Assembly (NCBI GenBank): GCA_964435855.1
Contig: CAYTAU010000008.1
Coordinates: 2,096-66,095, forward strand
Length of the DNA stretch: 64,000 bases
Direction of reading: 5' to 3'
Origin: an uncultured Bacteroidales bacterium
GTDB taxonomy: Bacteria; Bacteroidota; Bacteroidia; Bacteroidales; CAYTAU01
The notes under the pieces were generated by a model, which saw nothing but the letters and a program-made list of their open reading frames with translations, did no database searches and was not told the DNA's origin. The stretch's first letter is position 1; every line of letters starts with the position of its first letter. The position numbers and the translations under genes are program-made. Below, piece after piece: positions 12,312 through 29,685 of the stretch.

Positions 12312-13025
12312 TTATTTAAATTTAAGGATACCATACTTAATAATGGTCCATAATATTTTAAAAGCATCTTTGTTTCTAAGCTTTTTACCTTCACCATAGT
12401 TTCTTGGGAAATAATGAACAGGAACTTCAATAATATTATTTTTTCTTACCCTTAAAGCTTTTAATATCATTTCTGCTTCTATCCCAAATCGCTCTTCTTT
12501 TAATTTAATTTTATTGTAAAGGTCTCTATGTATTAATTTATAACCACATGCCATATCTGTTAGTTTAACATTTATAAATATGGATGTGATAAATGTGAAT
12601 ATTTTATTTCCTAAGTATCTTCGGTAGGAAGAAACTGGCCTTAAAACTCCTGGAAGATATCTGGAGCCATTTACAAATTGCACATTGAATCTATGCATTG
12701 CATCTAATAATACAATAATGTCATCAATGGATAATTCCATATCGGCATCTTGCATGAGAAAAATATCTCCATTTGCTTTTGCAATACCAGTTTTTACAGC
12801 AGCACCTTTACCTCTGTTGATTTCATGTTGTAGAAATATAAAATTATTTTTATTCTTGGAAAAATTTGAGACTATTTCATGTGAATTGTCGCTTGAACCA
12901 TCATCAATAACAATAAATTCAATAGTGGAAATATATGAAGGAAATTTAAGTTCGTTAAGCTTCTGTAATGTTTCTAATATGTGATTCTCTTCATTAAAGA
13001 ATGGAACAATAATACTTAATTTCAT
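12312..13025 (-). CDS. family 2 glycosyltransferase (polyprenyl-phosphate sugar synthase type, ArnC/GtrB/CsbB-like)
   Basis: KLSIIVPFFNEE, VIDDGSSD, GKGAAVKTG, LMQDADME. About 237 aa with no long TM region. Confidence 0.85.
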   Translation of the reverse strand: MKLSIIVPFFNEENHILETLQKLNELKFPSYISTIEFIVIDDGSSDNSHEIVSNFSKNKNNFIFLQHEINRGKGAAVKTGIAKANGDIFLMQDADMELSIDDIIVLLDAMHRFNVQFVNGSRYLPGVLRPVSSYRRYLGNKIFTFITSIFINVKLTDMACGYKLIHRDLYNKIKLKEERFGIEAEMILKALRVRKNNIIEVPVHYFPRNYGEGKKLRNKDAFKILWTIIKYGILKFK

Positions 13026-13492: not shown

Positions 13493-14785
13493 ATGACAAA
13501 AAAAGTATATGTAGGGATGAGTGCAGATATGATTCATCCCGGACATTTAAATATTATTAAGGAAGCAAGTAAATTAGGCAATGTTATTGTTGGAATACTT
13601 ACCGATAAAGCTATTGCTTCATATAAGCGCTTGCCTGCATTAAAATATGAACAACGAAAAATAATTATAGAAAATATAAAAGGTGTAACTGAGGTTATTC
13701 CGCAACATGAATTAGATTATACAGTTAATTTACGTAAAGTAAAGCCGGATTATGTTGTTCATGGAGACGATTGGAAAGAAGGTATTCAGAGAAGAGTGCG
13801 TCAAAAAGTTATTGACACACTTGCAGAGTGGGGAGGCAAACTACATGAAGTGCCATATACAAAAGGAATTTCTTCAACACAATTAAATCAAACACTAAAA
13901 GAAATTGGTACAACTCCTGAAATAAGAATGGGTAAATTACGTCGTTTAATTGATTCAAAACCAATTGTTAGAGTGATGGAGGCTCATAATGGTTTAACAG
14001 GATTAATTGTTGAGAATATCAATGTTAAAAAAGATGGCATGACAAAAGAATTTGATGCCATGTGGCTTAGTAGCCTCACTGATTCTACTGCCAAAGGTAA
14101 ACCAGACATTGAAGCAGTTGATGTTACTTCGCGCCTACATAGTCTTAACGACATTTTAGAAGTAACCACAAAACCTATTATATATGATGGTGATACAGGT
14201 GGAATTCCGGAACATTTTATATTTACTGTGAGAACTTTGGAACGTCTGGGAGTTTCTGCAATAATTATTGAGGATAAAACTGGTTTAAAGAAAAATTCTC
14301 TTTTTGGAACAGATGTTAAACAAACCCAAGATTCAATAGAAAATTTTTCTAATAAGATTAAAACAGGTAAGCAATCACAAATTACAGATAGTTTTATGAT
14401 AATAGCCAGAATAGAGAGTTTGATACTAAAGCAAGGAATGGATGATGCTATTAATAGAGCAAAAGCGTATATAGAAGCGGGGACTGATGGTATTATGATT
14501 CACAGTAAAGAAAAAGATGGAAATGAAATTCTTGAATTTTGCAAAAAGTTTAATGAATTTGATAGACGTGTCCCCTTAGTTGTTGTTCCTTCTAGTTATA
14601 ATCACATATACGAAAAGCAATTCATTGATGCAGGTGCTAATGTCGTAATTTATGCAAATCATTTGTTGAGGAGTGCTTACCCTGCAATGATTGATGTTGC
14701 AAAAATAATTTTAGAAAATGAACGTTCTTCTGAAGTTAATGATAAATGTATGTCAATTAAAGAAATACTAACTCTTATCCCATAG
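13493..14785 (+). CDS. pepM: bifunctional cytidylyltransferase-like domain / phosphoenolpyruvate mutase
   Basis: The N-terminal ~130 aa is TagD/ECT-like with a HIGH-type motif ([18 protein letters not shown]). The C-terminal PepM domain has DGDTGG and [13 protein letters not shown]. Confidence 0.9.
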
Positions 14786-14792
14786 ATAAATA

Positions 14793-15923
14793 ATGATTAG
14801 TCCTAATTTTTTTTATAATTACTTAACGAGTAAAAATATAGAGTTTTTTACAGGTATACCTGACTCATTATTAAAAGATATTTGTGCTTATATTACAGAT
14901 AACACTTCAAAGAAAAATCATATTATTGCGGCAAACGAAGGAAATGCAATTGCTATTGCAGCCGGATATCATATGGCAACAGATAAAATCCCTTTGGTTT
15001 ATATGCAAAATTCAGGAATAGGCAATGCTGTAAATCCGCTGCTGTCACTTACTGACTCGAACGCGTATAATATTCCGATTTTACTGATGATTGGTTGGCG
15101 AGGTGAACCTGGAACAAAAGATGAACCGCAACATGTTAAACAAGGCTTGGTTACAACTTCTTTGCTTGATGCGATGAAAATACCATATTTAATTTTAGAC
15201 CAAGACGAACAAAATGCCAAAGAACAAATAGATGAAGCAATAAATAAAATAAATAAAACAAATGTTGTTTTTGCTATTATTGTTAGAAAAGGAACTTTTG
15301 AAAAATATAGTATCAAGCAAAAAACAGATGCAAATTATACACTTTATCGCGAAGAGGCAATTAAAATAATTGTTGAGCAATTAGAAGGAAAAGAGTTAAT
15401 TGTTTCAACTACAGGAAAAACTTCTCGTGAGCTTTTTGAATGCAGAGAGGCATTAAATCAGCTACATAATGCTGATTTTTTGACCGTAGGTTCTATGGGA
15501 CATGCTAGTCAAATAGCATTAGGTATAGCATTAAGCAAACCTAATAGAAAAGTAATATGTATTGATGGTGATGGAGCTGTTTTAATGCACATGGGAGGGT
15601 TTGCAATTATAGGAACACAATCTCCAAAGAATTTTTTACATATAATTATAAATAATGGAGCACATGAATCTGTTGGTGGACAACCAACTGTAGCTTTTGG
15701 TATTGATATTCCATCTATTGCTAAAGCCAATAATTACAAATACGCCGTTAGAGTTTCAACATCAGATGAGCTTAAAGATGCTCTTGTAGAAATTGATAAA
15801 AACTTATTCCCGGCACTTATTGAAATAATGGTACGAACAGGTTCAAGAGATGATTTAGGTCGCCCTACTATTAAGCCGATAGATAACAAAATTAATTTTA
15901 TGAAAAATCTAGCATCAGAATGA
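14793..15923 (+). CDS. ppd: phosphonopyruvate decarboxylase
   Basis: 376 aa. ThDP motif GDGAVLMHMGG...NNGAHESVGGQ. Sits immediately after pepM. Confidence 0.88.
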   Translation: MISPNFFYNYLTSKNIEFFTGIPDSLLKDICAYITDNTSKKNHIIAANEGNAIAIAAGYHMATDKIPLVYMQNSGIGNAVNPLLSLTDSNAYNIPILLMIGWRGEPGTKDEPQHVKQGLVTTSLLDAMKIPYLILDQDEQNAKEQIDEAINKINKTNVVFAIIVRKGTFEKYSIKQKTDANYTLYREEAIKIIVEQLEGKELIVSTTGKTSRELFECREALNQLHNADFLTVGSMGHASQIALGIALSKPNRKVICIDGDGAVLMHMGGFAIIGTQSPKNFLHIIINNGAHESVGGQPTVAFGIDIPSIAKANNYKYAVRVSTSDELKDALVEIDKNLFPALIEIMVRTGSRDDLGRPTIKPIDNKINFMKNLASE

Positions 15924-17047
15924 GGCAAGAAGTATATAGAAATACGCAATTTTTAGATTTTAAGAAGTTTGTTAATAGGTATAATCCACAAAAAGTATTT
16001 TTGGTTGTGGATAAAAATTCATACGAGGTTTCCGGAGCAAGATTATTTATTGAAAAAATCTTTGGCGATGCTTTATCTGTCGCATTTTCTGATTTTAATC
16101 CCAATCCTCAATTGTCAGACTTAAAAAAAGGTATCTTTTTATTTCAAAAAGGTAAATATGAATTAATCTTGGCATTAGGAGGAGGGAGTGTTATTGATAT
16201 GGCTAAGCTGATTAGTGTAATGGTACATCAAGATCAGGATGTTAAAAAAATTGCAAAAAGAAGTGCTATTTTGAATAATAAAAAGACCCCATTGTTAACT
16301 ATTCCAACAACAGCCGGTACAGGTGCAGAAGCAACATCATTTGCAGTTCTTTATATTGATAAAGTCAAATATTCTGTTGCAAATGAATCAATATCTCCCA
16401 ATTATATTTTTTTGTCTCCCGAATTTTTAATGTCTGCACCTCCATATTTAACAGCTTGTACAGGTCTTGATGCATTTTGTCAAGCAATAGAATCTGTTTG
16501 GAGTATTAATTCCACAACAGAATCTAAAAAATATGCTCTTGAAGCAATTGATATAGTATGGAATAATCTGAAAATGGCAGTTGTTGATAATGACAAAAAA
16601 GCAAAGTCATTAATGCAAGAAGCTGCGTATTTAGCAGGTAAAGCAATAAATATCACAAAAACAACAGCGCCACATGCTTTGTCTTATGCTTTTACAAGTT
16701 ATTATAATATACCCCACGGGCATGCGGTAGCTTTGAGTTTGCCTTTTTTCTTTGAGTATAATTATGGGGTTTTAGATATTGACTGTAATGATACTCAAGG
16801 TGGAGATATTGTTAGAAATCGAATAAATGAGATCTTAAAAATAATGAATCTTAATATTGATAATGTGAACAATGAACTTACTTTATTCTTTGATTCAATA
16901 GGGATTAATATTAATATTATGACATTAATTAAGGATTTTAATCCAGATATAATTGTTAACAATATAAATCTTGAACGATTAAATAATAACCCAAGAAAAA
17001 TTAATAAAAAATCATTGATGAGTTTTTTAAATAACTGTAAATATTAG
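15920..17047 (+). CDS. iron-containing (group III) alcohol dehydrogenase, probable phosphonoacetaldehyde reductase
   Basis: GGGSVIDMAK and PHALSYAF..IPHGHAVAL metal-site histidines. ATGA overlap with ppd. The specific substrate is inferred from context. Confidence 0.7.
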   Translation: MRQEVYRNTQFLDFKKFVNRYNPQKVFLVVDKNSYEVSGARLFIEKIFGDALSVAFSDFNPNPQLSDLKKGIFLFQKGKYELILALGGGSVIDMAKLISVMVHQDQDVKKIAKRSAILNNKKTPLLTIPTTAGTGAEATSFAVLYIDKVKYSVANESISPNYIFLSPEFLMSAPPYLTACTGLDAFCQAIESVWSINSTTESKKYALEAIDIVWNNLKMAVVDNDKKAKSLMQEAAYLAGKAINITKTTAPHALSYAFTSYYNIPHGHAVALSLPFFFEYNYGVLDIDCNDTQGGDIVRNRINEILKIMNLNIDNVNNELTLFFDSIGININIMTLIKDFNPDIIVNNINLERLNNNPRKINKKSLMSFLNNCKY

Positions 17048-17068: not shown

Positions 17069-18307
17069 ATGACAAAAATACTTTTATATATAGACCCAGC
17101 GTCAACAAGTGCATTGCTTTATATTATAATTGCCATTGCAGCAACACTTGCCTTTGCCTTACGTGGTTTTTTCTATAGGATTAAAAATTTAATTTTTGGA
17201 AAAGGATTTATAAATACTAATGAATTTAATAATATTGATATTATTTTTTATTCTGAAGGGAAACAATATTGGCCTGTGTTTTATCCAATTATTAAAGCTT
17301 TGGAAAAGAAAAATATTGAATGTGCATATTTAACATCAGATGATAAAGATCCCGGCTTAGACTATAAATCAGAACTTCTTAAAACAAAATTTATAGGTAA
17401 TTTAACTATGACATCAGTTTATTTAAAAAAATTAAAAGCTAAATTTGTTGGAATGACTACACCACAACTTGATGTAATGATGATACAGCGATCAAAACAT
17501 ATACAACATTATGCTCATATAGTACATGCTCCTATTGATGTTTTTACATATCGTAAATTTGCTTTTGATTATTTTGATTCTGTTTTTTGTTCAGGACCAC
17601 ATCAAATAGAAGGAATTAAAAAACTAGAAGAGAAACGTGGAACAAATAAAAAACTTCTTTTAGAAACTGGACTTACATATTATGATGTAATGTTAGAGGA
17701 TATTAAAAAATTACCAAACCCAGATAAGCAAAGACCTGTTGTATTAGTTGCTCCAACATGGAAAGAGTACTCAATATTAAACAGATTTGGATTAAAGTTT
17801 TTTGAAAATCTTCTAAAAGATGAATCTTATGATGTTATTTTAAGACCTCACCCACAAACTTATGTGAGTTTCCCAAAATTAATTGCAGAAATTGAAGAAA
17901 AATATAAAGATGAACCACGATTTGTTGTTGACAGAGAACCATTAGGAACAGCAAGTATGTTGAAAGCTGACTTGATGATCAGCGATTTGTCAGGAGTGTT
18001 TTGGGATTTTATGTTTTTATATTCCAAACCTATCTTATTATTAAAAACGAACTTTGAATCTATAGAAGGTTTTGAAGGAAGTGAGTTAGACTATGAAATG
18101 TGGGAAATGAGAGAAAGAAGTAGGGTTGGGAGTATTTTTGATGAAGATGATTTAGAAAATATAAATAAAGTTGTGAAAGACTTATTAGAAACCCCTCCTC
18201 TTATGCAGTTAGAAGAGCTGAGAAAGCAGTCAGTATTTAATTTTGGGAGGGCTGGAGAAACAGCTGCTAAACAGATATTAGAGATAATAGAAGATATTGA
18301 CAAATAA
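17069..18307 (+). CDS. TagF/TagB-family CDP-alditol-type phosphotransferase homolog with N-terminal TM helix
   Basis: VVLVAPTWKE, ILRPHPQT, DLMISDLSGVFWDF, SKPILLL: the hallmark string of the CDP-glycerol glycerophosphotransferase family. Confidence 0.75.
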   Translation: MTKILLYIDPASTSALLYIIIAIAATLAFALRGFFYRIKNLIFGKGFINTNEFNNIDIIFYSEGKQYWPVFYPIIKALEKKNIECAYLTSDDKDPGLDYKSELLKTKFIGNLTMTSVYLKKLKAKFVGMTTPQLDVMMIQRSKHIQHYAHIVHAPIDVFTYRKFAFDYFDSVFCSGPHQIEGIKKLEEKRGTNKKLLLETGLTYYDVMLEDIKKLPNPDKQRPVVLVAPTWKEYSILNRFGLKFFENLLKDESYDVILRPHPQTYVSFPKLIAEIEEKYKDEPRFVVDREPLGTASMLKADLMISDLSGVFWDFMFLYSKPILLLKTNFESIEGFEGSELDYEMWEMRERSRVGSIFDEDDLENINKVVKDLLETPPLMQLEELRKQSVFNFGRAGETAAKQILEIIEDIDK

Positions 18308-18324
18308 AAAAATAACAAAAAATA

Positions 18325-21300
18325 ATGATTTTTTTCGAGCAAATAATATCACCATTTATTTTTATAATTAAGCAAATATTTTTGTTTAGTTATGAATTAA
18401 CCGGTGATTATGGTGTAGCTATTATTTTATTAAGTTTTGTAGTATCATTGATCTTATTGCCAATTTTTATTTTAATAGAAAAATCCAAAAAGAAAGATGA
18501 TGTTGTAAGGAAAAAAATGAAACCCTTAATTGATGAAATTAAGCGAGTTTATAAAGGGCAAGAACGTTATTATTATTTAAAAACAATAAATCGTCAGTAT
18601 AATTACAATTCTTTCAAGGCACTAATTCCAATTTTAAGTTTATTAATTCAGATACCATTTTTTATTGCAGCTTATCAGTTTTTAGAAAATTTTACAGAAC
18701 TAAAAGATGTAAGCTTTTTATTTATTAAAGACTTAAGTCTTCCCGATGGATTGTTTGGAGATATACATTTTTTACCAATCCTAATGACATTGGTAAATTT
18801 ATTAACAGCGTATTTATACACACGTAATGGCAATACATCTGAGCGCAAACAAATGTTAATAGTTGCAGGAGCTTTTTTGATTTTACTATTTAATCTTCCC
18901 TCAGGTTTAGTTCTTTATTGGACAATGAATAATGTTTTTAGCTTTTTTAGATTGTTTATTACAAATAAGGAAGTTTTTAAATCCAATTTATTAGGTTCAT
19001 CAAATTTTAATTTTGATTTTAAGGCTTCATATAAAAAACTCAAAATAATATTTATTGTTATTTTGGCACCTCTTTTATTCTCTCAGTTTTATTGGGCTTT
19101 TAATCATGATTTTAATGATATTTATATCCGCTTGCTGATGGCAATACTTATATCAGTTGGCTTAACCTTGTTAATCTGGCTAATAATAAATTTCTATAAA
19201 CATTACAAAACAACCATACTTGAAATAAAAGTAAAGCCAAGCTTGTTTTTTACTTTATTATTTTTAACTGTTTATTTTCATTTATCATCTCAGTTTTATT
19301 TTACAGGGGAAAATGCAACATTAAGTATAATTGCCTTATTAATGCTAATCCCTATTCAGTTTATTGGTTACATATATACGATTCGAACAAGATCAAAAAA
19401 AATTGCATATAAGTTTACAATTATTATTTATTTAGTTATTGTAGCTTATCAACTAGTTTCGTTAATATCCTATATTGCTGAAGATATTTTAATTAGTATT
19501 TTTAAAATAGAAATATTAATTGAATCAGGCTCATTCTCAGACATATTGGTGCCGGGTATTATTTTTTCCTTAATTTCATCAATTTATTATCTGCGACATA
19601 ATGGAACCCAGACAAATATAACAGCAAGAAAGAATTGGTTAATTTTTTCCCTTTCTATATTATATATCTTTGGGGTAATATTCTTTTGGCACCCCTTAAT
19701 TGTGTATTCTTCTTTTCCTGCAAATTTTGAATTTCCGGCATATAAATTTTTTAGCAATAATTTAATTCCATTTATAATAAGTATTTTCTCCAGTATTTTG
19801 CTTTATAAAATACTCTCAAAAAAATATAGAATAAATATGCTTCAAGTATTTTTATGGCTTGTTATTATTGTTCTATTGTATAGCTCAATTATTCCATTCG
19901 ATGTTGGTACATTACAAGTAAATTTTTTCTCAAAAGAAAATAATTTGGCTGCTGAAACATACAAATATTTATTTGAAGCTATTTTGTTAATAGGTATTTA
20001 TATTATAGTAATTAGGGTGTTAAAACGAAAGTATTTTAAACAAATTACTTTTGTATTAATTGTTTTGAACCTGTTTATTATTAGTCAAAGCTTATATTTA
20101 TCAGTAAAAACAGGTGTATTTTTTTCTAAGGGAAATGATAACATTAAAGCTAAAGAAATTCAGTTTTCAAAAAATAATGAAAACATAATATTCTTTATTA
20201 TAGATGGAGCACAGGGTTGGTATATGCGAGATATTTTTATTGAAAACCCCAAACTAAATGATTTATATGATGGTTTTGTTTGGTATCCAAATACAATTTC
20301 AACATCAAATTATACATATTCTTCTGTTCCCGGTATGATGTGTGGAAATGATTTCTCTATTGAAAATATGAATAAAGATGAGGATAAAACCATAACTCAA
20401 AAAGTAACTAATGCCACTGCTAAATTCTATAGTAAAATTAAAGATAAGGGCTATTATTTTACAGGAAATCACCTTTCATACTCAAACTTAGATACAAAAC
20501 AAATTGACAATTTTCTCCCAAAATGGGAAAATAGTTGGTCAGAAGTAATAGGTCTGATTAATAGAGGTGAAATGTGGTATTCTCGTCTTTGGGAAAATGC
20601 ACTTTTTTCTTCTTCACCACTTTTTTTAAAACCAAGAATTTATAATCACAATAAATGGTTTGAAATAAGGAAAAATGAACAAAAAGAAATTACAACTACA
20701 GAACTCTTAGGCAAATATAGTTTTATTACAATTTTACCTAAAATCTCAAGCAACAAAAGTAATAATTCTAATTTTATTTATATTCATTCAATGTTTGCAC
20801 ATGCCCCTTGGGATTTAATTACAGAAGGTAACAAACTAATTAGTGATGTAAGCCCTTATGAAAATCAAAAACAATTTATTGAGTTTTTTGCAAAATGGCT
20901 AACTTGGATGAAAGAAAATGAAGTTTATGATAATACCAAAATAATTCTTGTGTCAGATCATGGACCATCTTGGTGGCATTATGACAAAAAAATAGAAGAC
21001 CATAACATACCTATAGTTTGGTCTAAAGATAATAAGGTTGTATTAGTGGAGTTTCTTAGATTAAACCCTGTTTTGATGGTAAAGGACTTTAATTCAAAAG
21101 GAAAAGTGAAAGAAGATTGGAGAATAATGAGCAATATTGATACTTATGCAATTGCATTTGATGAAAATGATCCAACAAAAAATAATCTTCCATCAAGAAC
21201 AGTTTATACATACTATACAAAATGGCACACAGATTTAAAAACTAGAAAAAAATACCAAAATAACCTTGCATTTCAGATCAAGGATAATGTATATGATATT

Positions 21301-21711
21301 AATAATTGGAAAAAAATTTCAACGTCAAATGATGCTGTGTCATATATGGAAAAAAATTCTTCTATAAGTATCTATGACAGTACTAATTTAGATGTAATTT
21401 TTTTAAATAAACAACGAACTATAATAATTTCAAGGATTAAAAATAGTTATGATTGGCTTGAAAATGTGAAAAGCCAAGCTAAAAAAAGAGAAATAACTTT
21501 AGATTCGATGTTAATATTATCAGCAAATTATGTTATAGAAACTGCAGAATCAGGATGCATAAAAGAAAGAGCAGTACTCATTCATAAAATAAAAAATGAT
21601 GAAGAGTGGTTAAACTCCATTATTGAAGATGCTAAAGTGAAAAATATTCAAATCGATTCAATGATATTGAAAAATGTTAATCACATTTTATATACCAGGC
21701 AAAATAAATGA
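18325..21711 (+). CDS. fusion protein: YidC/Oxa1-like module + polytopic region + LtaS/EptA-like sulfatase-fold domain + 2 C-terminal W/KAK repeats
   Basis: N-terminus has YGVAIILLSFVVSLILLP, MKPLIDEIKRVY, LLIQIPFFIAAY, FLFIKDLSLPD and PSGLVLYWTMNNVFSF. The extracytoplasmic domain has IFFIIDGAQGWY and ILVSDHGPSW. Confidence 0.7.
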   Translation: MIFFEQIISPFIFIIKQIFLFSYELTGDYGVAIILLSFVVSLILLPIFILIEKSKKKDDVVRKKMKPLIDEIKRVYKGQERYYYLKTINRQYNYNSFKALIPILSLLIQIPFFIAAYQFLENFTELKDVSFLFIKDLSLPDGLFGDIHFLPILMTLVNLLTAYLYTRNGNTSERKQMLIVAGAFLILLFNLPSGLVLYWTMNNVFSFFRLFITNKEVFKSNLLGSSNFNFDFKASYKKLKIIFIVILAPLLFSQFYWAFNHDFNDIYIRLLMAILISVGLTLLIWLIINFYKHYKTTILEIKVKPSLFFTLLFLTVYFHLSSQFYFTGENATLSIIALLMLIPIQFIGYIYTIRTRSKKIAYKFTIIIYLVIVAYQLVSLISYIAEDILISIFKIEILIESGSFSDILVPGIIFSLISSIYYLRHNGTQTNITARKNWLIFSLSILYIFGVIFFWHPLIVYSSFPANFEFPAYKFFSNNLIPFIISIFSSILLYKILSKKYRINMLQVFLWLVIIVLLYSSIIPFDVGTLQVNFFSKENNLAAETYKYLFEAILLIGIYIIVIRVLKRKYFKQITFVLIVLNLFIISQSLYLSVKTGVFFSKGNDNIKAKEIQFSKNNENIIFFIIDGAQGWYMRDIFIENPKLNDLYDGFVWYPNTISTSNYTYSSVPGMMCGNDFSIENMNKDEDKTITQKVTNATAKFYSKIKDKGYYFTGNHLSYSNLDTKQIDNFLPKWENSWSEVIGLINRGEMWYSRLWENALFSSSPLFLKPRIYNHNKWFEIRKNEQKEITTTELLGKYSFITILPKISSNKSNNSNFIYIHSMFAHAPWDLITEGNKLISDVSPYENQKQFIEFFAKWLTWMKENEVYDNTKIILVSDHGPSWWHYDKKIEDHNIPIVWSKDNKVVLVEFLRLNPVLMVKDFNSKGKVKEDWRIMSNIDTYAIAFDENDPTKNNLPSRTVYTYYTKWHTDLKTRKKYQNNLAFQIKDNVYDINNWKKISTSNDAVSYMEKNSSISIYDSTNLDVIFLNKQRTIIISRIKNSYDWLENVKSQAKKREITLDSMLILSANYVIETAESGCIKERAVLIHKIKNDEEWLNSIIEDAKVKNIQIDSMILKNVNHILYTRQNK

Positions 21712-24700
21712 ATTTTTTCGAGCAAATTATATCACCATTTATTTTTATAATTAAGCAAATCTTTTTGTTTAGTTCTGAATTAACCGGTAATTATGGTGTA
21801 GCTATTATTTTATTAAGTTTTGTAGTATCATTGATCTTATTGCCAATTTTTATTTTAATAGAAAAATCCAAAAAGAAAGATGATGTTGTAAGGAAAAAAA
21901 TGAAACCCTTAATTGATGAAATTAAGCGAGTTTATAAAGGGCAAGAACGTTATTATTATTTAAAAACAATAAATCGTCAGTATAATTACAATTCTTTCAA
22001 GGCACTAATTCCAATTTTAAGTTTATTAATTCAGATACCATTTTTTATTGCAGCTTATCAGTTTTTAGAAAATTTTACAGAACTAAAAGATGTAAGCTTT
22101 TTATTTATTAAAGACTTAAGTCTTCCCGATGGATTGTTTGGAGATATACATTTTTTACCAATCCTAATGACATTGGTAAATTTATTAACAGCGTATTTAT
22201 ACACACGTAATGGCAATACATCTGAGCGCAAACAAATGTTAATAGTTGCAGGAGCTTTTTTGATTTTACTATTTAATCTTCCCTCAGGTTTAGTTCTTTA
22301 TTGGACAATGAATAATGTTTTTAGCTTTTTTAGATTGTTTATTACAAATAAGGAAGTTTTTAAAGCCAATTTATTCGGTTCATCAAATTTTAATTTTGAT
22401 TTTAAGTCTTCATATAAAAAACTCAGAATAATATTTATTGTTATTTTGGCACCTCTTTTATTTTCTCAGCTCTATTGGGCTTTTAATCATGACTTTAATG
22501 ATATCTATATCCGCTTACTGGTGACAGTACCTATATCAGTTGGTTTAACTTTTTTTGTATGGCTAATAATAAATATATACCGTCATTACAAACAAGCTTT
22601 ATATAATATACAAGTAAAACCGAACTTGTTTTTCACTTTATTATTTTTAACTGTTTACTTTCATTTATCATCTCAGTTTTATTTTACAGGAGAAAATGCA
22701 ACACTAAGTATAATTGCCTTATTAATGCTAATACCTATTCAGTTTATTGGTTACATATATACAATTCGAACAAAATCAAAAAAAATTGCATATAAGTTTA
22801 CAATTATTATTTACTCCCTTATTGTAGCATATCAACTAATTACAATAACTTCTTATTTTGCAGAAGATATATCATTTAGTGTGGCAAAAATTAACATATT
22901 TATTAAACCCGGTTCATTTTCAGATGTATTAGTATCCGGTATTATTTTTTCTTTAATTGCATCAATATACTTTTTTCGTTCTTCTAAAATTAAATTTGAA
23001 AACAATAATAGATCAAACTATTTTATCTACACATTGTCAATAATTTTTATTTTTGGATTAATATTTTTCTGGAAACCATTATTAGTATACTCTTCTTCTC
23101 CTGATACATTTAGTTTCCCGGCTGGGCATATTTTTAAATATAATTACAAACTTTTTTTAATATGGTTTAGTATTTTAGTGCTAGCCTACATTTTGTTGCC
23201 AAAAAAATACAAAAAGATCTTGTTATACCTAAGTCTAATATATGTAGTTATTAGCTTTATATATAGCTTAATAATTCCTATTCAACTTGGATCATTACAA
23301 GTTTCAAAGTTTTCTGAACAGAAAAATCTTGAAGCACCTATAATGCATTACTTATTAGAAGCTATATTATTAATATGTATATTTTTTGCAGTTAACTGGG
23401 TTTATAAAAAAAAGTACTACAAAGTTACTGCTATAGTTTTGATTGTTTTCAACTTTTTATTGATAGGTCAAAGTATTTTTAGTGCATATAAAACAGGATA
23501 TTTTTATAGATCAGTTTACGAAGAAAAAATAAACACAAAAGATATTCCTTTTTCAAAAGATCAACAAAATATTGTTTATTTTCTTGCAGATGGATTTCAG
23601 GGATGGTATATAAAAAGAATAATGGAAGAAGAATCTGAGTTAAAAGATGTGTTTTCCGGTTTTACATGGTTTCCTAATACTTTATCAGAATCTAACTATA
23701 CACATTCTTCTGTAAATTCACTCTTTATAGGAAAAAAAGGTTCTGTAATTCAGATGAATGCTGATACAATACATACAATTAAAGAAAAAATTAATTACGC
23801 AGCTCTAGCTTTTATAAAAAAAATAAGAGAAAAAGGATATACTTATTCCAGTACTTATATGCATTATTCAGGTGTAGAGGCAAGCGAATTTGACAACTAT
23901 ATACCTTTTTGGAACGATGTATGGAATAAATGGTCTATTGATGTACCACTTGGGAATAAGATTGATGTTTGGAAAAAACGACTTTATGAAAATGCACTAT
24001 TTTATAGCCTGCCATTATTCCTAAAGCCTAAAATATATAATAAAACAGAGTGGCTACAATATTATTTTCCTAATCTAGAAGGAAAAAAACAAGATGGATA
24101 TAAATACTCTTATGAGCCGTATAATTTTATTAGACTATTGCCATATATATCTGTAATAGATTCGGGAATACCTAATTTTGTTTATATACACGATCATTCG
24201 TTGCATAACCCATGGAACACAGTAAATGACTTAGGGGAAATGAAAAACGATGTTCATCCTTATGAAGTTAGTATATGGTTCATTCAACGTTTTGCACGTT
24301 GGATAAAATGGATGAAGGATAATGATGTATATGATAATACAAAAATTGTAATAGTTTCAGATCACGGAGTATCTTGGTCTGCATTTGATGGTGAAGTAGA
24401 CATAAAATCATCGGTAAATTGGGAAAATAACCCTAGTAAAATATCCAAAATTTTATTTTGGAGACTTAACGCACTTTTAATGGTAAAGGATTTTAATGCA
24501 ACAGGACCTCTTAAAGAAGATTGGCGTATTATGACAAATGCTGATGCCCCTGAATTAATTTTTAATTTTAAAGAATTTATTGATAATGATTCAATAAACA
24601 GAATATTAAATTCATACTATACTAAATGGGAGGGGGAAATGACAAGTAAAATAATAATAAATATTCCAAAACAATATGAAGTAGAAAATGATATTTATGA

Positions 24701-24737
24701 TTTGAATAACTGGAAAGAAATTAAAGAAGTGAAATGA
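21708..24737 (+). CDS. paralog of 18325..21711 (YidC-like + polytopic + sulfatase-fold domain, no C-terminal repeats)
   Basis: First ~219 aa almost identical to the upstream paralog. VYFLADGFQGWY and VIVSDHGVSW. ATGA overlaps at both ends. Confidence 0.7.
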   Translation: MNFFEQIISPFIFIIKQIFLFSSELTGNYGVAIILLSFVVSLILLPIFILIEKSKKKDDVVRKKMKPLIDEIKRVYKGQERYYYLKTINRQYNYNSFKALIPILSLLIQIPFFIAAYQFLENFTELKDVSFLFIKDLSLPDGLFGDIHFLPILMTLVNLLTAYLYTRNGNTSERKQMLIVAGAFLILLFNLPSGLVLYWTMNNVFSFFRLFITNKEVFKANLFGSSNFNFDFKSSYKKLRIIFIVILAPLLFSQLYWAFNHDFNDIYIRLLVTVPISVGLTFFVWLIINIYRHYKQALYNIQVKPNLFFTLLFLTVYFHLSSQFYFTGENATLSIIALLMLIPIQFIGYIYTIRTKSKKIAYKFTIIIYSLIVAYQLITITSYFAEDISFSVAKINIFIKPGSFSDVLVSGIIFSLIASIYFFRSSKIKFENNNRSNYFIYTLSIIFIFGLIFFWKPLLVYSSSPDTFSFPAGHIFKYNYKLFLIWFSILVLAYILLPKKYKKILLYLSLIYVVISFIYSLIIPIQLGSLQVSKFSEQKNLEAPIMHYLLEAILLICIFFAVNWVYKKKYYKVTAIVLIVFNFLLIGQSIFSAYKTGYFYRSVYEEKINTKDIPFSKDQQNIVYFLADGFQGWYIKRIMEEESELKDVFSGFTWFPNTLSESNYTHSSVNSLFIGKKGSVIQMNADTIHTIKEKINYAALAFIKKIREKGYTYSSTYMHYSGVEASEFDNYIPFWNDVWNKWSIDVPLGNKIDVWKKRLYENALFYSLPLFLKPKIYNKTEWLQYYFPNLEGKKQDGYKYSYEPYNFIRLLPYISVIDSGIPNFVYIHDHSLHNPWNTVNDLGEMKNDVHPYEVSIWFIQRFARWIKWMKDNDVYDNTKIVIVSDHGVSWSAFDGEVDIKSSVNWENNPSKISKILFWRLNALLMVKDFNATGPLKEDWRIMTNADAPELIFNFKEFIDNDSINRILNSYYTKWEGEMTSKIIINIPKQYEVENDIYDLNNWKEIKEVK

Positions 24738-26644
24738 GGATAATATTAATTATTATTATTATTACAGTAATTGCTTTTAGTTGTAATAAGCCTAAATCTG
24801 CTCGTGATATTTTTAAATATAATCATGAAGAAGAGATATTTTTAGATTATACAAACAGTTATAATGAGGGATTTAATATTCCTGGTAATAATTCTTTTTT
24901 TGAAATAAAATTTATTTCAGAGGATTTTATTGGAAAATACTATAAAATATACTATCAGAATGAAAGTTATAAATTTGATGATACATTAAATTTATCTAAT
25001 GAGAACTTTTATGGTAGTTGGTCCGATACAAATATTGAGTTTGAAAATTTTTCAGAGGATACTACAATTATTAAATTTCAGATTCAGGGGAATCCAAGAA
25101 ATGAAGAAAAGTACTATCAAGATAATAGGGTTTATTTATCAGAAAATAAAATTCAGAAAACAGCAGAATCAATTTTAACTGATAAAAAATGGTCAAATGA
25201 TATTTTAGAAAAATCAAAATTGAATAATGTATCTTTCGAAAAACAACTTTATATTGATACAGAATGGCTTTTGCTTGATAAACAAAAGAGCAAAAGAACT
25301 AATAATAGATGGCAACGTAATCCTAGGCTTGGAGTTTATAGTTTGTTAATCGTAATAGTAGATCCAGAACAATTAGCAAAAACACCAAAATATATTGCTA
25401 ACATTAGTTTGAAAAATTCAGAATCTCATTTTGTTAATCCATATAAATATTTTGCCGATAATGAAGATAATAGCAAGGGCTTGGTGTATAAAATTGATAG
25501 GATAATAAAAGTAAAAGCTAAACCTCCTGTCAATAAAGGGATATATGTTAATTGTAAATTAAGAGACATAGATACAGCATATTATAATAAATATGTAAAT
25601 AGCAGTTTAAAGCTAAATAATAATGCAGCATTTGCTTATTTCCCAAATAAACGTTCCATTGATAAACCTATCCAAAATTTACCGGTGAGCTCAAAGTTAT
25701 TATCAGGTGAATACAGTTTAGAAGATTATAAAAAAAATATTGATGAGTTTGATGAACAAAGACTTGAAATTTTCTTTAAAAACTCAAAAGCTCCCGGTAA
25801 AACTTTTGGCGTTAATGAAAAAAACAATTCAATATGGTTTAAAAACCCTGCAAATAAAGAAGGAGAGTATTTAAAAGAAAATATTGGTATTCAAACCAGA
25901 AATGGTTTTACATATGGTAAATATACATTTAAAATAAAAATGGCAGAACTTCTAAATAAGCATAATGTATGGACCGGTTTAACAAATGCATTATGGCTTA
26001 TGGCTGAATCTGATGCAGAATGGAACAAGCGTAGAATATGCAATAAAGGTGGTTTTTTACCATATTATGGAGCACCAAAGACTGAGAAGAGAATTCCTGC
26101 TGTTTCATATTCTGAAATTGATTTTGAGATAATTAAAGCTCCAGAGAATTGGCCAATAACATCTTATAAAGATAAAACTTGTAGAAAGGAAGATCCTGCA
26201 TCTCATGTTGACAAAGTTATGATTGCATGTACAAATTTTGATTTAGCATGCCAACAGCCAAATAGCTTTAATAACGGTGTAGAAAAAATTAGATATAAAA
26301 AAGATACTTTTAATATTCATAGATGGAATACATGGTATCATGCGCTAACATCAAAAGTCCCTATTGCTGATGATGAATTATTTCAAAATGAGTTTTATTA
26401 TTTTCAAATAGAATGGAAACCAACAGAAATTATTTGGCGTATTGGAAAAGATAAAAAAAATCTTAAGGTAGTAGGATATATGAACGACAAAGTAACCAGT
26501 ATCCCTAATAATCAAATGGTTTGTATTATTACCCAAGAGTATCACCACTCTCATTGGTGGCCGGAATCTCCTTTTGAACAGGAAAATGTACCTTTTACAT
26601 TAGAAGATTTAAAAGGGGTTTTATATGAAATTGAAATTGAATAG
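24734..26644 (+). CDS. lipoprotein with C-terminal GH16/ConA-like glucanase-fold domain and one W/KAK repeat
   Basis: Lipobox VIAFSC. YGKYTFKIKMAE...ALWLMAE, SEIDFEI (ExDxE) and YYFQIEWKPTEIIWRIG. Confidence 0.65.
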   Translation: MRIILIIIIITVIAFSCNKPKSARDIFKYNHEEEIFLDYTNSYNEGFNIPGNNSFFEIKFISEDFIGKYYKIYYQNESYKFDDTLNLSNENFYGSWSDTNIEFENFSEDTTIIKFQIQGNPRNEEKYYQDNRVYLSENKIQKTAESILTDKKWSNDILEKSKLNNVSFEKQLYIDTEWLLLDKQKSKRTNNRWQRNPRLGVYSLLIVIVDPEQLAKTPKYIANISLKNSESHFVNPYKYFADNEDNSKGLVYKIDRIIKVKAKPPVNKGIYVNCKLRDIDTAYYNKYVNSSLKLNNNAAFAYFPNKRSIDKPIQNLPVSSKLLSGEYSLEDYKKNIDEFDEQRLEIFFKNSKAPGKTFGVNEKNNSIWFKNPANKEGEYLKENIGIQTRNGFTYGKYTFKIKMAELLNKHNVWTGLTNALWLMAESDAEWNKRRICNKGGFLPYYGAPKTEKRIPAVSYSEIDFEIIKAPENWPITSYKDKTCRKEDPASHVDKVMIACTNFDLACQQPNSFNNGVEKIRYKKDTFNIHRWNTWYHALTSKVPIADDELFQNEFYYFQIEWKPTEIIWRIGKDKKNLKVVGYMNDKVTSIPNNQMVCIITQEYHHSHWWPESPFEQENVPFTLEDLKGVLYEIEIE

Positions 26645-26646
26645 AT

Positions 26647-28077
26647 ATGGTTTTTAGCAGTATCTTTTTTCTACTATATTTTTTACCGGTATTCTTAATA
26701 ATTTACCATATTATTCCTCATAAGTATAGAAATTGGTGGATATTAATATCAAGCATTCTCTTCTATTCATGGGGGGCTCCAAAATTTGTATTTGTAGTAG
26801 TTGCTTCTGTTATTATTGACTATTACATTATAAATGAAATGCATAAAATGAATAATGATAAAAACCGAAAATGGATGCTTGCTTTATCAATATCCATAAA
26901 TATTGGTTTATTATTGTTTTTTAAATATGCTAACTTTTTTGTTGAGAATGTTAATTCAGTTCTTCAAGGTATTGGATTCGAACAAGTAGGTTGGACATCA
27001 ATTGCATTACCAATAGGTATTTCATTTTATACATTTCAAACTTTAACATATTCAATTGATGTTTATAGAAAAGTTCACAAACCATTAAAAAGCCCTTTTC
27101 AATATTTGGTTTATATAATGCTTTTTCCTCAGATGATTGCGGGACCTATTGTACGCTTTAACCAAATAGCCGAACAAATTGAAGACAGAAAAAACCTTGA
27201 AACTATTGATAATAAGCTGCTTGGATTTTTCAGGTTTGCAATAGGTTTAGCAAAAAAAGTACTAATTGCTAATGTAATGGGGGCAGAAGCAGATAGAATA
27301 TTTGCGCTTAGTGAGGGAAACTTAGGCTTTTATCAAGCTTGGTTAGGTGTTTTAGCTTATACTTTCCAAATCTATTATGATTTTTCAGGTTATTCTGATA
27401 TGGCTATTGGTTTGGGCAGGATAATGGGCTTTAAATTTCCTGAAAATTTTAATAATCCATATATTTCTCAGAGTATTAGTGAATTCTGGAGAAGGTGGCA
27501 TATTACACTTGGTAGCTGGATGCGTGATTATTTATATATTCCACTCGGCGGTAGTAGGGTAAAATCAAAAAGAAGACTGTTTTTTAATCTTTGGCTGATA
27601 TTCATAATTTCAGGTTTATGGCATGGAGCTGCGTGGAACTTTATTATTTGGGGAGCTTACCATGGAATTTTTCTAATTTTTGATAGATTATTTTGGCTTA
27701 AGATTGTAGACAAAATTGGCAAATATCCAAGTATTTTTATAACATTCTTTATTACAATTATTGGATGGGTTCTTTTCAGAGCAGAAAGCTTATTTCAAAT
27801 AAAATACTATTTAAAGGCAATGTTTAGCTTTAAAACTATAGAGTTTGACTTTTATATTACTAATGAATTTTGGACATTATTTATTATTGCATTTATATTT
27901 GCATTTATTACTATTTCTAAATTAGGGCTTAAAATTGAGAACTTTGTATTCTTCAAAAAAAAATATAGTATTGGTCAAACACTATTTATGTCTTTTATAG
28001 TATTTTTATTATTAATTCTTTCTATTGCTAATATAGTTTCTTCTGATTTTAACCCTTTTATCTATTTTAGATTTTAA
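26647..28077 (+). CDS. MBOAT family O-acyltransferase (AlgI/DltB-like)
   Basis: FWRRWHITLGSWMRDYLYIPLGG and GLWHGAAWNF (conserved His). Polytopic. Confidence 0.9.
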   Translation: MVFSSIFFLLYFLPVFLIIYHIIPHKYRNWWILISSILFYSWGAPKFVFVVVASVIIDYYIINEMHKMNNDKNRKWMLALSISINIGLLLFFKYANFFVENVNSVLQGIGFEQVGWTSIALPIGISFYTFQTLTYSIDVYRKVHKPLKSPFQYLVYIMLFPQMIAGPIVRFNQIAEQIEDRKNLETIDNKLLGFFRFAIGLAKKVLIANVMGAEADRIFALSEGNLGFYQAWLGVLAYTFQIYYDFSGYSDMAIGLGRIMGFKFPENFNNPYISQSISEFWRRWHITLGSWMRDYLYIPLGGSRVKSKRRLFFNLWLIFIISGLWHGAAWNFIIWGAYHGIFLIFDRLFWLKIVDKIGKYPSIFITFFITIIGWVLFRAESLFQIKYYLKAMFSFKTIEFDFYITNEFWTLFIIAFIFAFITISKLGLKIENFVFFKKKYSIGQTLFMSFIVFLLLILSIANIVSSDFNPFIYFRF

Positions 28078-28089
28078 AATAACAAATTT

Positions 28090-29685
28090 ATGAATAAACA
28101 TATAAAAAAAGTAATACTCCTGTTTTTTATTATTATTCTTATGGTCCCGGCAATTGAAAGACACCTGAGTTTTTTTAACTTCACACAACTTAATGGTGCA
28201 TACACAAATACATCCAGAATTGACCTAAATGTTACAAACTTTCTTGATGATTCCTATCAAATTGCTTTAGAGAAAAATTTGACTGATAGTATAGGATTTA
28301 AAAGTATTCTTGTTCGCGTATATAATCAAATAGCTTATTCATTATTTAATATTTCACATGCAAATAAAGTTGTTGTTGGAACTGATGATGTTTTATATGA
28401 AGACTACTACATTAACTCATATTATGGCAAAGATTATATTGGTCATGATAAAATTAATGAAAAAGTAGAAAAGTTTTCAAAACTTCAACAATTATTATAT
28501 TCTAAAGGAATTCATTTGCTTTTAGCCATAACACCAAGTAAAGCATCCATATATCCAAATAATTTTCCTAAGCATTTGAAGTCTGAAAAAGGTACAACAA
28601 ATTATGAAAAAACAATTGAACTCCTTAACAAATATGATTGCAAATATATAGACTTAAAAAATATATTTTTAGAATTAGATAAAACAACTGAATATACTCT
28701 ATTTCCGAAGCAGGGAATTCACTGGAGTGGCTATGGAATTACAAAAGCTGCAGATACACTATTTAAGTATTTATCAAATAAAACTGGCATCATTTTTAAC
28801 AATATAATTATAAAAGAAGGAGAATTAACAAATATATATCAAGGTTCAGATAATGACATTGGCGATGCATTAAATCTATTATTTAAACCTGTAATTGATA
28901 AATTATATTATCCTGAAATTATTTTTTATAATGATAAAAATAATACTAAACCGGGTGTGCTAATTATTGGAGATAGCTTCTCTAATGGATTTTGGAAATT
29001 TTATCCATACTTTCAAAATTTATTTAATGAAGAAAGTCAGTTTTGGTATTATAATCAGGAAATTATTTGGCCACAAAATAATTTAAATACAAAAGTCGAG
29101 TCATTAGATCTGTATGAAGAGATACTTAAAAGAAAAATTATTTTAGTTATTAGTTCAGAACAAAATCTCGATAATTTGGGCTACTTCTTTTTTGATAAAA
29201 CATTAGAAATATTTAATAATAAAAATAAGTTTATTAAAAATAAAATAAATCACTATACTTCAAAAATTAAAACAGATAAAAATTGGCTAAACAGTATTAA
29301 GGAAAAAGCTAAAATGAACAATATTTCAGAAGATGAAATGATTAATATTGATGTAAAATGGCTTTGCGAACAAGATATTATTAGATACTATACAGATTCT
29401 ATTAATAATGATTCTGTGTGGAAATCTAATATAATTAGAAAATCTGTTGAAAAGCAAATGTCTTTAGATTCTATAATCTTTTTGGATGCTAAATATTTAT
29501 TTAAAATAAATTATGAAGATCTTTTAAATAATAGTAATACAGATAAATTAGTATTAAAAACAATTGAAAAAATAAAGGCAGATATAGATTGGTATAATGA
29601 TATTAAACAAAAAGCAAAGAAAAACAATATTACTGTTGAGGAACAGCTTCGCATTGATGCTGAATGGGTTGTTGAGAATATGTAG
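28090..29685 (+). CDS. AlgJ/AlgX/DltD-like SGNH-type partner of the MBOAT, with three C-terminal W/KAK repeats
   Basis: N-terminal anchor helix. KQGIHWSGYG (DxHW-like) and LIIGDSFSNGF. Position directly after the MBOAT. Repeats lie at 29242-29682. Confidence 0.55.
   Translation: MNKHIKKVILLFFIIILMVPAIERHLSFFNFTQLNGAYTNTSRIDLNVTNFLDDSYQIALEKNLTDSIGFKSILVRVYNQIAYSLFNISHANKVVVGTDDVLYEDYYINSYYGKDYIGHDKINEKVEKFSKLQQLLYSKGIHLLLAITPSKASIYPNNFPKHLKSEKGTTNYEKTIELLNKYDCKYIDLKNIFLELDKTTEYTLFPKQGIHWSGYGITKAADTLFKYLSNKTGIIFNNIIIKEGELTNIYQGSDNDIGDALNLLFKPVIDKLYYPEIIFYNDKNNTKPGVLIIGDSFSNGFWKFYPYFQNLFNEESQFWYYNQEIIWPQNNLNTKVESLDLYEEILKRKIILVISSEQNLDNLGYFFFDKTLEIFNNKNKFIKNKINHYTSKIKTDKNWLNSIKEKAKMNNISEDEMINIDVKWLCEQDIIRYYTDSINNDSVWKSNIIRKSVEKQMSLDSIIFLDAKYLFKINYEDLLNNSNTDKLVLKTIEKIKADIDWYNDIKQKAKKNNITVEEQLRIDAEWVVENM

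Follow-up and report, generated by a model that had tools for sequence, protein, structure and literature searches.

Tandem YidC-module fusion proteins of a Bacteroidales phosphonate operon as candidate periplasmic phosphonyl transferases

A positively charged residue at the center of the membrane groove is described as 'strictly conserved' across YidC homologues, and in E. coli YidC this arginine is dispensable if residue 517 is hydrophilic or aromatic (PMC8920935). Purified E. coli YidC scrambles phospholipids in vitro (PMC11047089). In the biosynthesis of surface phosphonates, a PF01467 domain fused to phosphoenolpyruvate (PEP) mutase (Ppm) is one of two commonly fused nucleotidyltransferase types; activation as a cytidine monophosphate (CMP) conjugate was shown for the PF12804 type, the cytidylyltransferase of Fom1 is cited for PF01467, and the tailoring steps that follow CMP-activation are described as unknown (PMC6697681). 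Here we analyze two tandem genes, A and B, in a 64,000-nucleotide stretch (the window) of contig CAYTAU010000008.1 from an uncultured Bacteroidales bacterium, each encoding a protein of more than 1000 amino acids (aa) in which a YidC-like module is followed by 11 predicted transmembrane (TM) helices and a predicted alkaline-phosphatase (AP)-fold domain.

The reading favored here, to which a probability of about 0.5 is assigned, is that A and B are paralogous inner-membrane enzymes that act as periplasmic phosphonyl transferases of a cell-surface phosphonate-tailoring operon and in which the YidC-derived module couples the cytoplasmic and periplasmic steps. It is proposed more tentatively that the Oxa1/YidC-fold domain has been turned from an insertase into a dedicated transbilayer route for a lipid-linked small molecule, forming a fixed link between a TagF-like transferase in the cytoplasm and an LtaS-like one in the periplasm.

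The phosphonate operon and the family of fusion proteins

The phosphonate operon context is the strongest functional evidence. A and B are genes 5 and 6 of a nine-gene block on the + strand with gaps of -4 to 21 bp (Table 1). The first three genes encode a cytidylyltransferase-Ppm fusion, phosphonopyruvate decarboxylase (Ppd) and an iron-containing alcohol dehydrogenase (FeADH), activities that constitute the known route to 2-hydroxyethylphosphonate (HEP); judged from this context, the FeADH is probably the phosphonoacetaldehyde reductase that makes HEP (PMC8942020). The block thus has the features of a surface-tailoring cluster of the Pnt type, which are Ppm with a fused cytidylyltransferase, Ppd and surface-polymer genes. 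The fourth gene, directly upstream of A, encodes a TagF-like enzyme, and B is followed by genes for a putative lipoprotein, an MBOAT-family O-acyltransferase with DltB as its best NCBIfam match and an AlgX/AlgJ-like protein. Neither DltA nor DltC is encoded among the genes of the operon, and the combination suggests that an extracytoplasmic polymer is O-acylated rather than D-alanylated. No ABC (ATP-binding cassette) exporter, LCP (LytR-CpsA-Psr) ligase or other candidate transporter is encoded in the operon of the window.

More than 120 full-length homologues, 1000-1230 aa long, were found among 5.8 billion protein clusters. PF02096 is present in each of them and PF00884 in many, and they come from Bacteroidales, Salinivirgaceae, Lentimicrobium and Draconibacterium, the sources including contigs of 4.6-6.1 Mb (those of Draconibacterium included); where named, they are annotated 'membrane protein insertase YidC'. 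The original prediction, made from the sequence of the window, knew of no described protein combining an insertase-like module with a phosphotransferase domain. This stands for the literature, in which searches for YidC fused or linked with sulfatase, LtaS or phosphonate, or for phosphonate with glycerophosphotransferase, gave no description of such a fusion, but in databases the architecture is common under the YidC label. With the non-YidC part as the only query, a HMMER scan of 1.84 billion representatives (50%-identity clusters) matched 2260 proteins at E<=1e-3, of which 929 reached E<=1e-10. When one genome per species was scanned, at least 466 encoding stretches were obtained; among the 78 loci retained are those of Treponema (T. 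putidum ATCC 700334, T. brennaborense and Treponema sp. JC4), other spirochaetes, Lachnospiraceae and a metagenome-assembled genome (MAG) of Chlorobiota.

Where the flanks suffice, the gene order in Bacteroidota is essentially fixed as Ppm, Ppd, FeADH, TagF-like and then one to three tandem fusions, and the 15 Bacteroidota loci whose upstream flank reaches 5.2 kb or more all contain both the TagF-like gene and Ppm. In T. putidum, TagF-like and fusion genes form three consecutive pairs. A 'Shewanellaceae' MAG (L051, 1190-3586) encodes a protein of ~780 aa whose YidC module is Arg-less (Asn at that position) and which has a smaller number of TM helices and a more divergent AP-like domain (…INGDHGP…); after it come TagF-like, Ppm, FeADH and Ppd genes; unless the bin is misassigned, the architecture reaches beyond the lineages listed above.

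The open reading frames (ORFs) of A and B are both uninterrupted and overlap by 4 bp. The proteins share 62% identity overall, distributed very unevenly along the genes. A tract of 575 nt in the YidC module (nt 83-657 of each gene; window positions 18407-18981 and 21790-22364) is 100% identical, the next ~500 nt are a mosaic of 79-94% identity, and the remainder is about 60-65% identical. The identical tract indicates recent gene conversion, assembly collapse being less likely. An origin of the fusions in mis-assembly or a missed stop codon could be argued from this tract, conceivably a collapsed repeat, and from two related loci (L019, 4964-5758 and 5706 onward; L058, 7446-8609 and 8452 onward) in which the module overlaps the rest of the protein in another reading frame, probably through frameshift errors or pseudogenization and not as true split genes. 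The more than 120 full-length homologues come, however, from independent assemblies, some on contigs the size of complete genomes; 78 loci were recovered; and the co-resident paralogues of every multi-copy locus combine high identity in the YidC module with low identity in the AP domain. Mis-assembly or read-through is therefore ruled out, with only a negligible probability left to an artefact, and the uninterrupted, correctly assembled genes claimed in the original prediction are borne out.

The C-terminal tail of A contains two copies of a ~45-aa repeat, approximately W..x..KAK..nI..D.m...DA.W, that also occurs three times at the C-terminus of the AlgX/AlgJ-like protein (aa ~378-534) and once in the 636-aa putative lipoprotein (aa ~136-190). 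It was found as well in the equivalent proteins of five other loci (L001, L009, L011, L013 and L025) and has no Pfam match. The repeat may be a common polymer-binding or complex-forming module. The 636-aa protein has a lipoprotein-like N-terminus (…IAFSC) and a 'SEIDFEI' motif resembling the GH16 catalytic motif E-x-D-x-E, without a Pfam or NCBIfam hit; it is kept downstream of the fusions in L001, L009, L011 and L013.

Table 1. Coordinates of the operon genes and of the parts of A and B within the window.
Feature	Coordinates	Strand	Evidence
Cytidylyltransferase (PF01467, PntC/Fom1 type)-PEP mutase fusion, first gene	13493..14785	+	PEP_mutase 183 bits, CTP_transf_like 54 bits, TIGR02320 418 bits vs cut-off 320
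Phosphonopyruvate decarboxylase	14793..15923	+	TIGR03297 505 bits vs cut-off 312.5
Iron-containing alcohol dehydrogenase	15920..17047	+	Pfam Fe-ADH 116 bits; best NCBIfam Phn_Fe-ADH TIGR03405, 165 bits, below cut-off
TagF-like (Glyphos_transf) transferase, N-terminal anchor YIDPASTS (aa 7-14) and hydrophobic helix	17069..18307	+	PF04464 E 9e-11
Protein A, 1128 aa: YidC-like module, 11 TM helices, AP-fold domain, C-terminal repeat tail	18325..21711	+	
A, YidC-like module, aa 1-218; Ser41 at groove-Arg position	18325..18978	+	
A, middle region, 11 TM helices, aa ~232-595	19018..20109	+	by alignment to modelled B
A, predicted periplasmic AP-fold domain; putative active site D627, T664, H826, D878, H879	20158..21339	+	
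A, C-terminal tail: two copies of ~45-aa repeat	21340..21708	+	jackhmmer within window
Protein B, 1009 aa: architecture as A without tail	21708..24737	+	
B, YidC-like module, aa 1-218	21708..22361	+	
B, middle region, 11 TM helices	22401..23492	+	AlphaFold2 models, hydropathy, positive-inside pattern
B, predicted periplasmic AP-fold domain; putative active site D628, T665, H833, D885, H886	23541..24734	+	
636-aa putative lipoprotein, one ~45-aa repeat, 'SEIDFEI' motif	24734..26644	+	no Pfam hit
MBOAT-family membrane O-acyltransferase (AlgI/DltB-like)	26647..28077	+	PF03062 115 bits; best NCBIfam DltB 172 bits, below cut-off
AlgX/AlgJ-like SGNH protein, three C-terminal ~45-aa repeats	28090..29685	+	PF16822 55 bits

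YidC-like module, membrane region and alkaline-phosphatase-fold domain

The N-terminal module is a genuine YidC core with the five-TM fold and the cytoplasmic hairpin. PF02096 (60KD_IMP) aligned with aa 29-215 over the whole model (positions 1-163 of 163; E 2e-27, 97 bits against a cut-off of 35), the domain-level NCBIfam model TIGR03592 scored 100-101 bits against a cut-off of 84.3, and a phmmer search of PDB sequences returned solved YidC structures only (E 1e-13 to 1e-10). An AlphaFold2 model of aa 1-603, with a predicted local distance difference test (pLDDT) score of 76.5, was compared with the PDB by Foldseek and superimposed on YidC of B. halodurans (3wo6) with a template-modelling score (TM-score) of 0.72 and a root-mean-square deviation (rmsd) of 3.3 Å over 212 columns. 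The matches were 3wo6, 3wo7, 6al2, 3wvf and 6y86, the latter four at E 5e-5 to 1e-3, and include YidC of E. coli and T. maritima; only YidC structures were matched in the PDB, the next candidates having E>1. The likeness of the first ~215 aa to YidC claimed in the original prediction is thereby confirmed by profile searches and predicted fold, and the motifs quoted in it were all found at equivalent positions of A and B. The full-length YidC equivalog models of NCBIfam (12-13 listed) were all far below their cut-offs, the best with 84 bits against 479. Identity as the housekeeping YidC is ruled out by these scores together with the phosphonate-operon context and the lost groove arginine.

Retention of that arginine, which the original prediction had left for a predicted structure to decide, is not observed. 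Ser41 of A and B aligned with R366 of E. coli YidC and with the groove Arg of T. maritima YidC, and neither Arg nor Lys occupies the position in any of 111 fused modules from the 78 loci, which have Ser in 46 of 46 Bacteroidota copies and Thr, Ser, Asn or Gln in 65 of 65 copies from spirochaetes and Firmicutes. Stand-alone YidC-like relatives have Asn, Ser or Thr in 77 of 78 aligned sequences. By these alignments the module belongs to a separate, Arg-less clade of YidC. The equivalent of E. coli residue 517 is an invariant Trp (W199); since the Arg is dispensable next to an aromatic residue at that position, its loss marks the clade and is no proof of lost insertase ability. The module's cytoplasmic hairpin shows almost no variation and has a sequence of its own (KGQERYYYLKT.NRQ).

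Conservation differs between the parts of the fusion, as measured over 61 aligned full-length homologues. The YidC module has a mean pairwise identity of 72% (61 of 218 columns invariant), the 11-TM region one of 32% (6 of 364) and the AP domain one of 42% (27 of 398). Co-resident paralogues of every multi-copy locus share 73-95% identity in the YidC module in Bacteroidota, or 56-71% in spirochaetes, and 33-49% in the AP domain. The module is, on this comparison of sequences, the most constrained part and appears functional rather than vestigial. The 575-nt tract identical in A and B speaks for the same conclusion. A constrained module common to paralogues with diverged catalytic domains fits a common function on the donor or partner side combined with divergent acceptors, and does not fit a decaying anchor.

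The same results bear on whether the module is a built-in chaperone, that is, a cis-acting insertase or foldase for the protein's own 11 TM helices that is unrelated to the substrate. The module retains the fold and most of the signature motifs of YidC, it is N-terminal and so is made first, and the Arg of E. coli YidC is dispensable with an aromatic neighboring residue, as here (PMC8920935). Such a role is nevertheless unlikely: homologous proteins composed of the TM domain and AP domain (TMD+AP) exist without a fused module, the YidC-like gene of split loci adjoins the TagF-like or anchor genes and not the TMD+AP gene, conservation of the module far exceeds that of the region whose folding it would assist, and the loss of Arg is universal in the clade.

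The module is followed in the model of B by 11 TM helices, where the original prediction had estimated 8-10; with the five of the YidC core, 16 are predicted per protein. The helices span aa 232-260, 266-299, 305-323, 331-354, 360-384, 404-425, 438-463, 474-496, 499-522, 545-567 and 571-595, with a short beta-hairpin at 388-399 and an alpha/beta domain from ~612 (full-length model, pLDDT 84.2, predicted TM-score 0.67). Lys/Arg-rich loops lie on alternate sides in a pattern that matches the usual orientation of YidC and a periplasmic C-terminal domain, and the model accordingly predicts the YidC core in normal orientation with the AP-fold domain in the periplasm. The 11-TM region had no structural match in the PDB. 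PbgA and MCR-1 were considered as homologues of the TM domain and rejected, the full-length Foldseek alignments being long but their TM-scores poor. In the longer homologues, of 1160-1230 aa (P0043, P0055, P0058 and others), two to four extra tandem two-helix hairpins directly follow the YidC module, with the motif Q-(L/I)-N-W-A-x-x-x-x-F-(D/N)-D-I-x-x-R and corresponding to aa ~232-299 of B (window 22401-22604). Helices are gained in pairs, and the topology is therefore preserved.

The predicted fold of the C-terminal domain is clearly that of alkaline phosphatases and sulfatases. The top PDB matches of full-length B by Foldseek were PbgA, LtaS (2w8d, 2w5r and 4uor), MCR-1 (9nww), YejM periplasmic domains and the S1 sulfatases (E 4e-7 to 1e-5, probability 1.00). 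PF00884, with a cut-off of 25 bits, scored 27.1 bits in A (aa 620-883) and 12.7 bits in B, and the N-terminal part of the domain aligned to choline sulfatase below significance. The LtaS/EptA-like sulfatase-fold domain of the original prediction is thus supported as to fold, but the sequence evidence from PF00884 is weak and the TM part is unlike that of LtaS and EptA. The putative active-site residues D628, T665, H833, D885 and H886 of B are invariant in the 61 full-length homologues. T665 caps the start of a helix 10 residues before an invariant Gly, in the consensus T-x-x-S-x-P-x-x-x-x-G, a spacing that we take to be that of the nucleophile in the sulfatase motif C-x-P-x-R-x-x-x-x-T-G. A formylglycine sulfatase was ruled out, the C/S-x-P-x-R motif being absent because the site has no Cys or Arg.

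The site with a putative Thr nucleophile resembles that of the transferases LtaS, EptA and OpgB. To our knowledge, the characterized polytopic membrane members with a Thr nucleophile (LtaS, EptA/MCR-1 and OpgB) are transferases. Most members of the alkaline-phosphatase/sulfatase fold are hydrolases and the weak sequence matches include sulfatases and a phosphonate monoester hydrolase, so the domain might instead be a hydrolase of phosphodiesters or phosphonate esters with a role in trimming or recycling phospho(no)-groups at the surface. That A and B lie inside biosynthetic operons, translationally coupled to the synthesis genes, and have Thr at the nucleophile position with no C/S-x-P-x-R motif, as well as the precedent of the Thr-nucleophile transferases just named, makes a hydrolase very unlikely.

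Partnership with a TagF-like enzyme and proposed mechanism

Split-gene versions link the module to its partners. Among 137 further representatives, 77 have a YidC module and 60 do not, some of the latter being truncated ORFs and others genuine TMD+AP proteins of ~730-790 aa. One cluster on a 2.1 Mb contig (L086) contains TMD+AP (727 aa), TagF-like, PntC-Ppm, Ppd, nucleotidyltransferase and aminotransferase genes together with genes for a separate 71-aa anchor protein and a 226-aa Arg-less YidC-like protein. In L084, a TagF-like gene is followed by a stand-alone YidC-like gene (Asn at the Arg position), a gene for a PntC-aminotransferase fusion of the type characterized in T. denticola (PMC6697681) and, further on, a stand-alone TMD+AP gene. 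Brachyspira hyodysenteriae CP117021 (L087, 8001-10726) has a 334-aa Arg-less YidC-like gene separated by 9 bp from one for a 570-aa AP-fold homologue; neither a TagF-like nor a Ppm gene lies within 8 kb. On the 'Rosetta stone' argument, these separate-gene clusters are classic evidence for joint action of the TagF-like enzyme, the TMD+AP enzyme and the Arg-less YidC-like module. About 80 clusters make up the family of stand-alone YidC-like proteins; a stand-alone YidC-like protein was also noted in Povalibacter (P0335). The YidC-like protein of B. hyodysenteriae has extra C-terminal helices that resemble part of the core, and its AP-fold partner has few TM helices.

The TagF-like enzyme begins with the motif Y-(I/L)-D-P-(G/A)-(T/S)-(G/T)-S (17087-17110 in the window) followed by a hydrophobic helix. 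The motif was found inside the TagF-like ORF in 55 of 62 loci, with 0 matches in shuffled ORFs. Split loci encode the anchor as a separate gene of ~71 aa with a signal-like first helix (L086, 7773-7985; L083, 8605-8814; L084, 716-946), directly upstream of the YidC-like gene in L084 and L086 and of the TagF-like gene in L083. The ~71-aa protein is a small family of 39 clusters; for 19 of the 39, a stand-alone YidC-like hit has a longest contig of equal size, an indirect sign of shared contigs. Exact-word matching with this short query found no protein among the 39 clusters that fuses the anchor to a YidC-like module.

Short single-span proteins of N-out topology are classic clients of YidC, and Cox18/Oxa2 sets a precedent for a client-dedicated paralogue. 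The module might then be a docking device or dedicated insertase that only inserts, or permanently holds, the N-out anchor of the TagF-like enzyme, thereby joining both enzymes in one complex with no movement of lipid. The recurrence of the anchor motif (Y-I/L-D-P-G-T-G-S plus a TM helix) in TagF-like ORFs, the position of the ~71-aa gene in split systems, the matching contig sizes and the almost invariant cytoplasmic hairpin of the module all favor this explanation. On the other side, the anchor of Bacteroidota is fused to the TagF-like enzyme and not to the YidC module, the YidC-like/AP pair of B. hyodysenteriae is without a nearby TagF-like gene, and the intermediate would still need a route through the membrane, for which the operon of the window encodes no alternative transporter. 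Docking without lipid movement is on balance regarded as doubtful.

In the favored reading of A and B as periplasmic phosphonyl transferases, the cytoplasmic enzymes would make HEP and activate it as a CMP conjugate, and the TagF-like enzyme would move the phosphonyl group onto a membrane-bound, probably lipid, carrier at the inner face. Once the carrier had reached the outer face of the membrane, the periplasmic Thr (T664 in A, T665 in B) would attack the phosphorus, as in LtaS, EptA and OpgB, to form a covalent intermediate from which the phosphonyl group would be passed to an envelope glycan. A and B would differ in acceptor, and the MBOAT/AlgX-like pair might subsequently O-acylate the glycan. 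The YidC-derived module would not be the cell's insertase; it would serve as a conserved coupling device between the cytoplasmic and periplasmic steps. Its most likely role would be to offer the lipid-linked intermediate a path across the bilayer through the hydrophilic, membrane-thinning groove, to hold the N-terminal anchor of the TagF-like enzyme, or both. The path function by itself is possible rather than probable, and a lipid-linked substrate, suggested for the groove as one possibility in the original prediction, is made more credible by the lipid scrambling of YidC in vitro (PMC11047089). It may be speculated that the free hydroxyl of HEP would allow an LtaS-like polymerization, yielding a poly(hydroxyethylphosphonate) chain as opposed to single units.

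Several results weigh against this reading. Loss of the groove Arg does not by itself abolish insertase activity when the 517-equivalent is, as here, an invariant Trp (PMC8920935). No similarity was detectable between the TM region that precedes the enzyme domain and the five-TM domain of LtaS and EptA; profile searches of the PDB with full-length and domain-only alignments aligned significantly in the H...DHG region alone; and no significant residue-level alignment placed the nucleophile on T300 of LtaS. One close homologue (P0123) is without a YidC module, and the ~1.4 kb of contig upstream of it contains no YidC gene. The 23 spirochaete and Firmicute loci have a TagF-like gene in 14 cases and Ppm within flanks of up to 10 kb in only 5, and one spirochaete locus combines two small TagD-like cytidylyltransferases with a TagF-like enzyme and a fusion in a polysaccharide cluster without Ppm. 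The scarcity of Ppm outside Bacteroidota and the TagD-like locus indicate that the family probably also handles phospho-alcohols, phosphonate specificity being a matter of context. Thus, the conserved unit is the TagF-like enzyme plus fusion, with phosphonate activated in the lineage of the window and probably a phospho-alcohol in some others.

The surroundings of the operon were also annotated. Divergent genes on the - strand encode a 237-aa GT2 glycosyltransferase (12312-13025) and a 587-aa protein with an FRG1/fascin-like beta-trefoil C-terminus (10532-12295), and further along the same strand are genes for an NlpC/P60 peptidase (9366-10148) and a 2064-aa bacterial alpha-2-macroglobulin (2152-8346). 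A PKD/SprB-repeat protein with a type IX secretion system (T9SS) tail, a mark of Bacteroidota, is encoded at 29708-31180.

Significance and comparison with known systems

The YidC fold, AP-superfamily membrane transferases and phosphonate tailoring are known parts; their combination, the Arg-less YidC clade and the fixed TagF-like partnership appear to be undescribed in the searchable literature. A and B are concrete candidates for how a CMP-activated phosphonate leaves the cytoplasm and joins the envelope, steps described as unknown (PMC6697681). The large Arg-less YidC-fold clade, fused and stand-alone, in biosynthetic operons offers a natural test of insertases as lipid scramblases (PMC11047089). 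Two open questions thereby become testable, namely the export and attachment of surface phosphonates and whether an insertase fold serves a lipid substrate in vivo, and the occurrence of the system in cultured Draconibacterium, Treponema putidum and Brachyspira hyodysenteriae puts it within reach of experiment. If the lipid route is true, it would be a natural case of an insertase fold acting as a substrate-specific scramblase inside a biosynthetic machine and would supply the export and attachment steps that are missing from the decoration of bacterial surfaces with phosphonates and some phospho-alcohols. In hundreds to thousands of entries, the name 'membrane protein insertase YidC' probably does not denote the housekeeping insertase, which affects automated annotation, the number of YidC paralogues counted and the prediction of essential genes.

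With YidC, SpoIIIJ and Oxa1 the module shares the five-TM core, the cytoplasmic coiled-coil hairpin and the orientation, and the motifs LLxQIPFF, DLSxPD and PSGLVLYW..N are kept. Unlike those proteins, it has S, T, N or Q in place of the groove Arg and no signal, lipoprotein or P1 N-terminal part; its genes stand in surface-tailoring operons, fused to an enzyme, and the sequence of the hairpin is its own.

LtaS, EptA/MCR-1 and OpgB are built from a polytopic N-terminal part and an extracytoplasmic AP-fold domain with a Thr nucleophile and Asp plus Asp-His metal ligands, which A and B match in predicted topology and with putative counterparts of these residues, and LtaS occurs as multiple paralogues per genome, as does the A/B family. 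In contrast, A and B have 16 TM helices instead of 5, the likeness in sequence is confined to the H...DHG region, and the donor is probably the product of the adjacent TagF-like enzyme rather than bulk phospholipid. PbgA/YejM is the best full-length Foldseek match of B (6xlp, E 4e-7, 695 columns), but with a TM-score of only 0.33 and an rmsd of 18.8 Å; PbgA is a non-catalytic sensor of lipopolysaccharide, whereas the catalytic set is invariant in the A/B family. The S1 formylglycine sulfatases share the fold and give the best sequence matches around the DHG region, but the A/B family has an invariant Thr followed by x-x-S-x-P and no C/S-x-P-x-R.

The wall teichoic acid pathway (TagD/TagF synthesis, TagGH export and LCP ligation) parallels the pathway proposed for the operon in an alcohol-phosph(on)ate activated as a CDP (cytidine diphosphate) or CMP derivative, a TagF-family step at the inner face and a later step outside. 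TagD-like genes replace the phosphonate genes in the one spirochaete locus, and the downstream MBOAT and SGNH-like pair recalls DltB/DltD or AlgI/AlgJ. The operon differs in having no ABC exporter or LCP ligase, in its diderm Bacteroidota host and in the anchor motif peculiar to its TagF-like enzyme. MprF is a lipid synthase fused to a dedicated flippase, with the enzyme on the cytoplasmic side and its product exported by the flippase. The proposed role of A and B follows the same logic, that of a lipid-modifying enzyme joined to a module that shifts lipid between leaflets; the folds are unrelated, however, and the enzyme of A and B would be periplasmic and would consume the translocated lipid.

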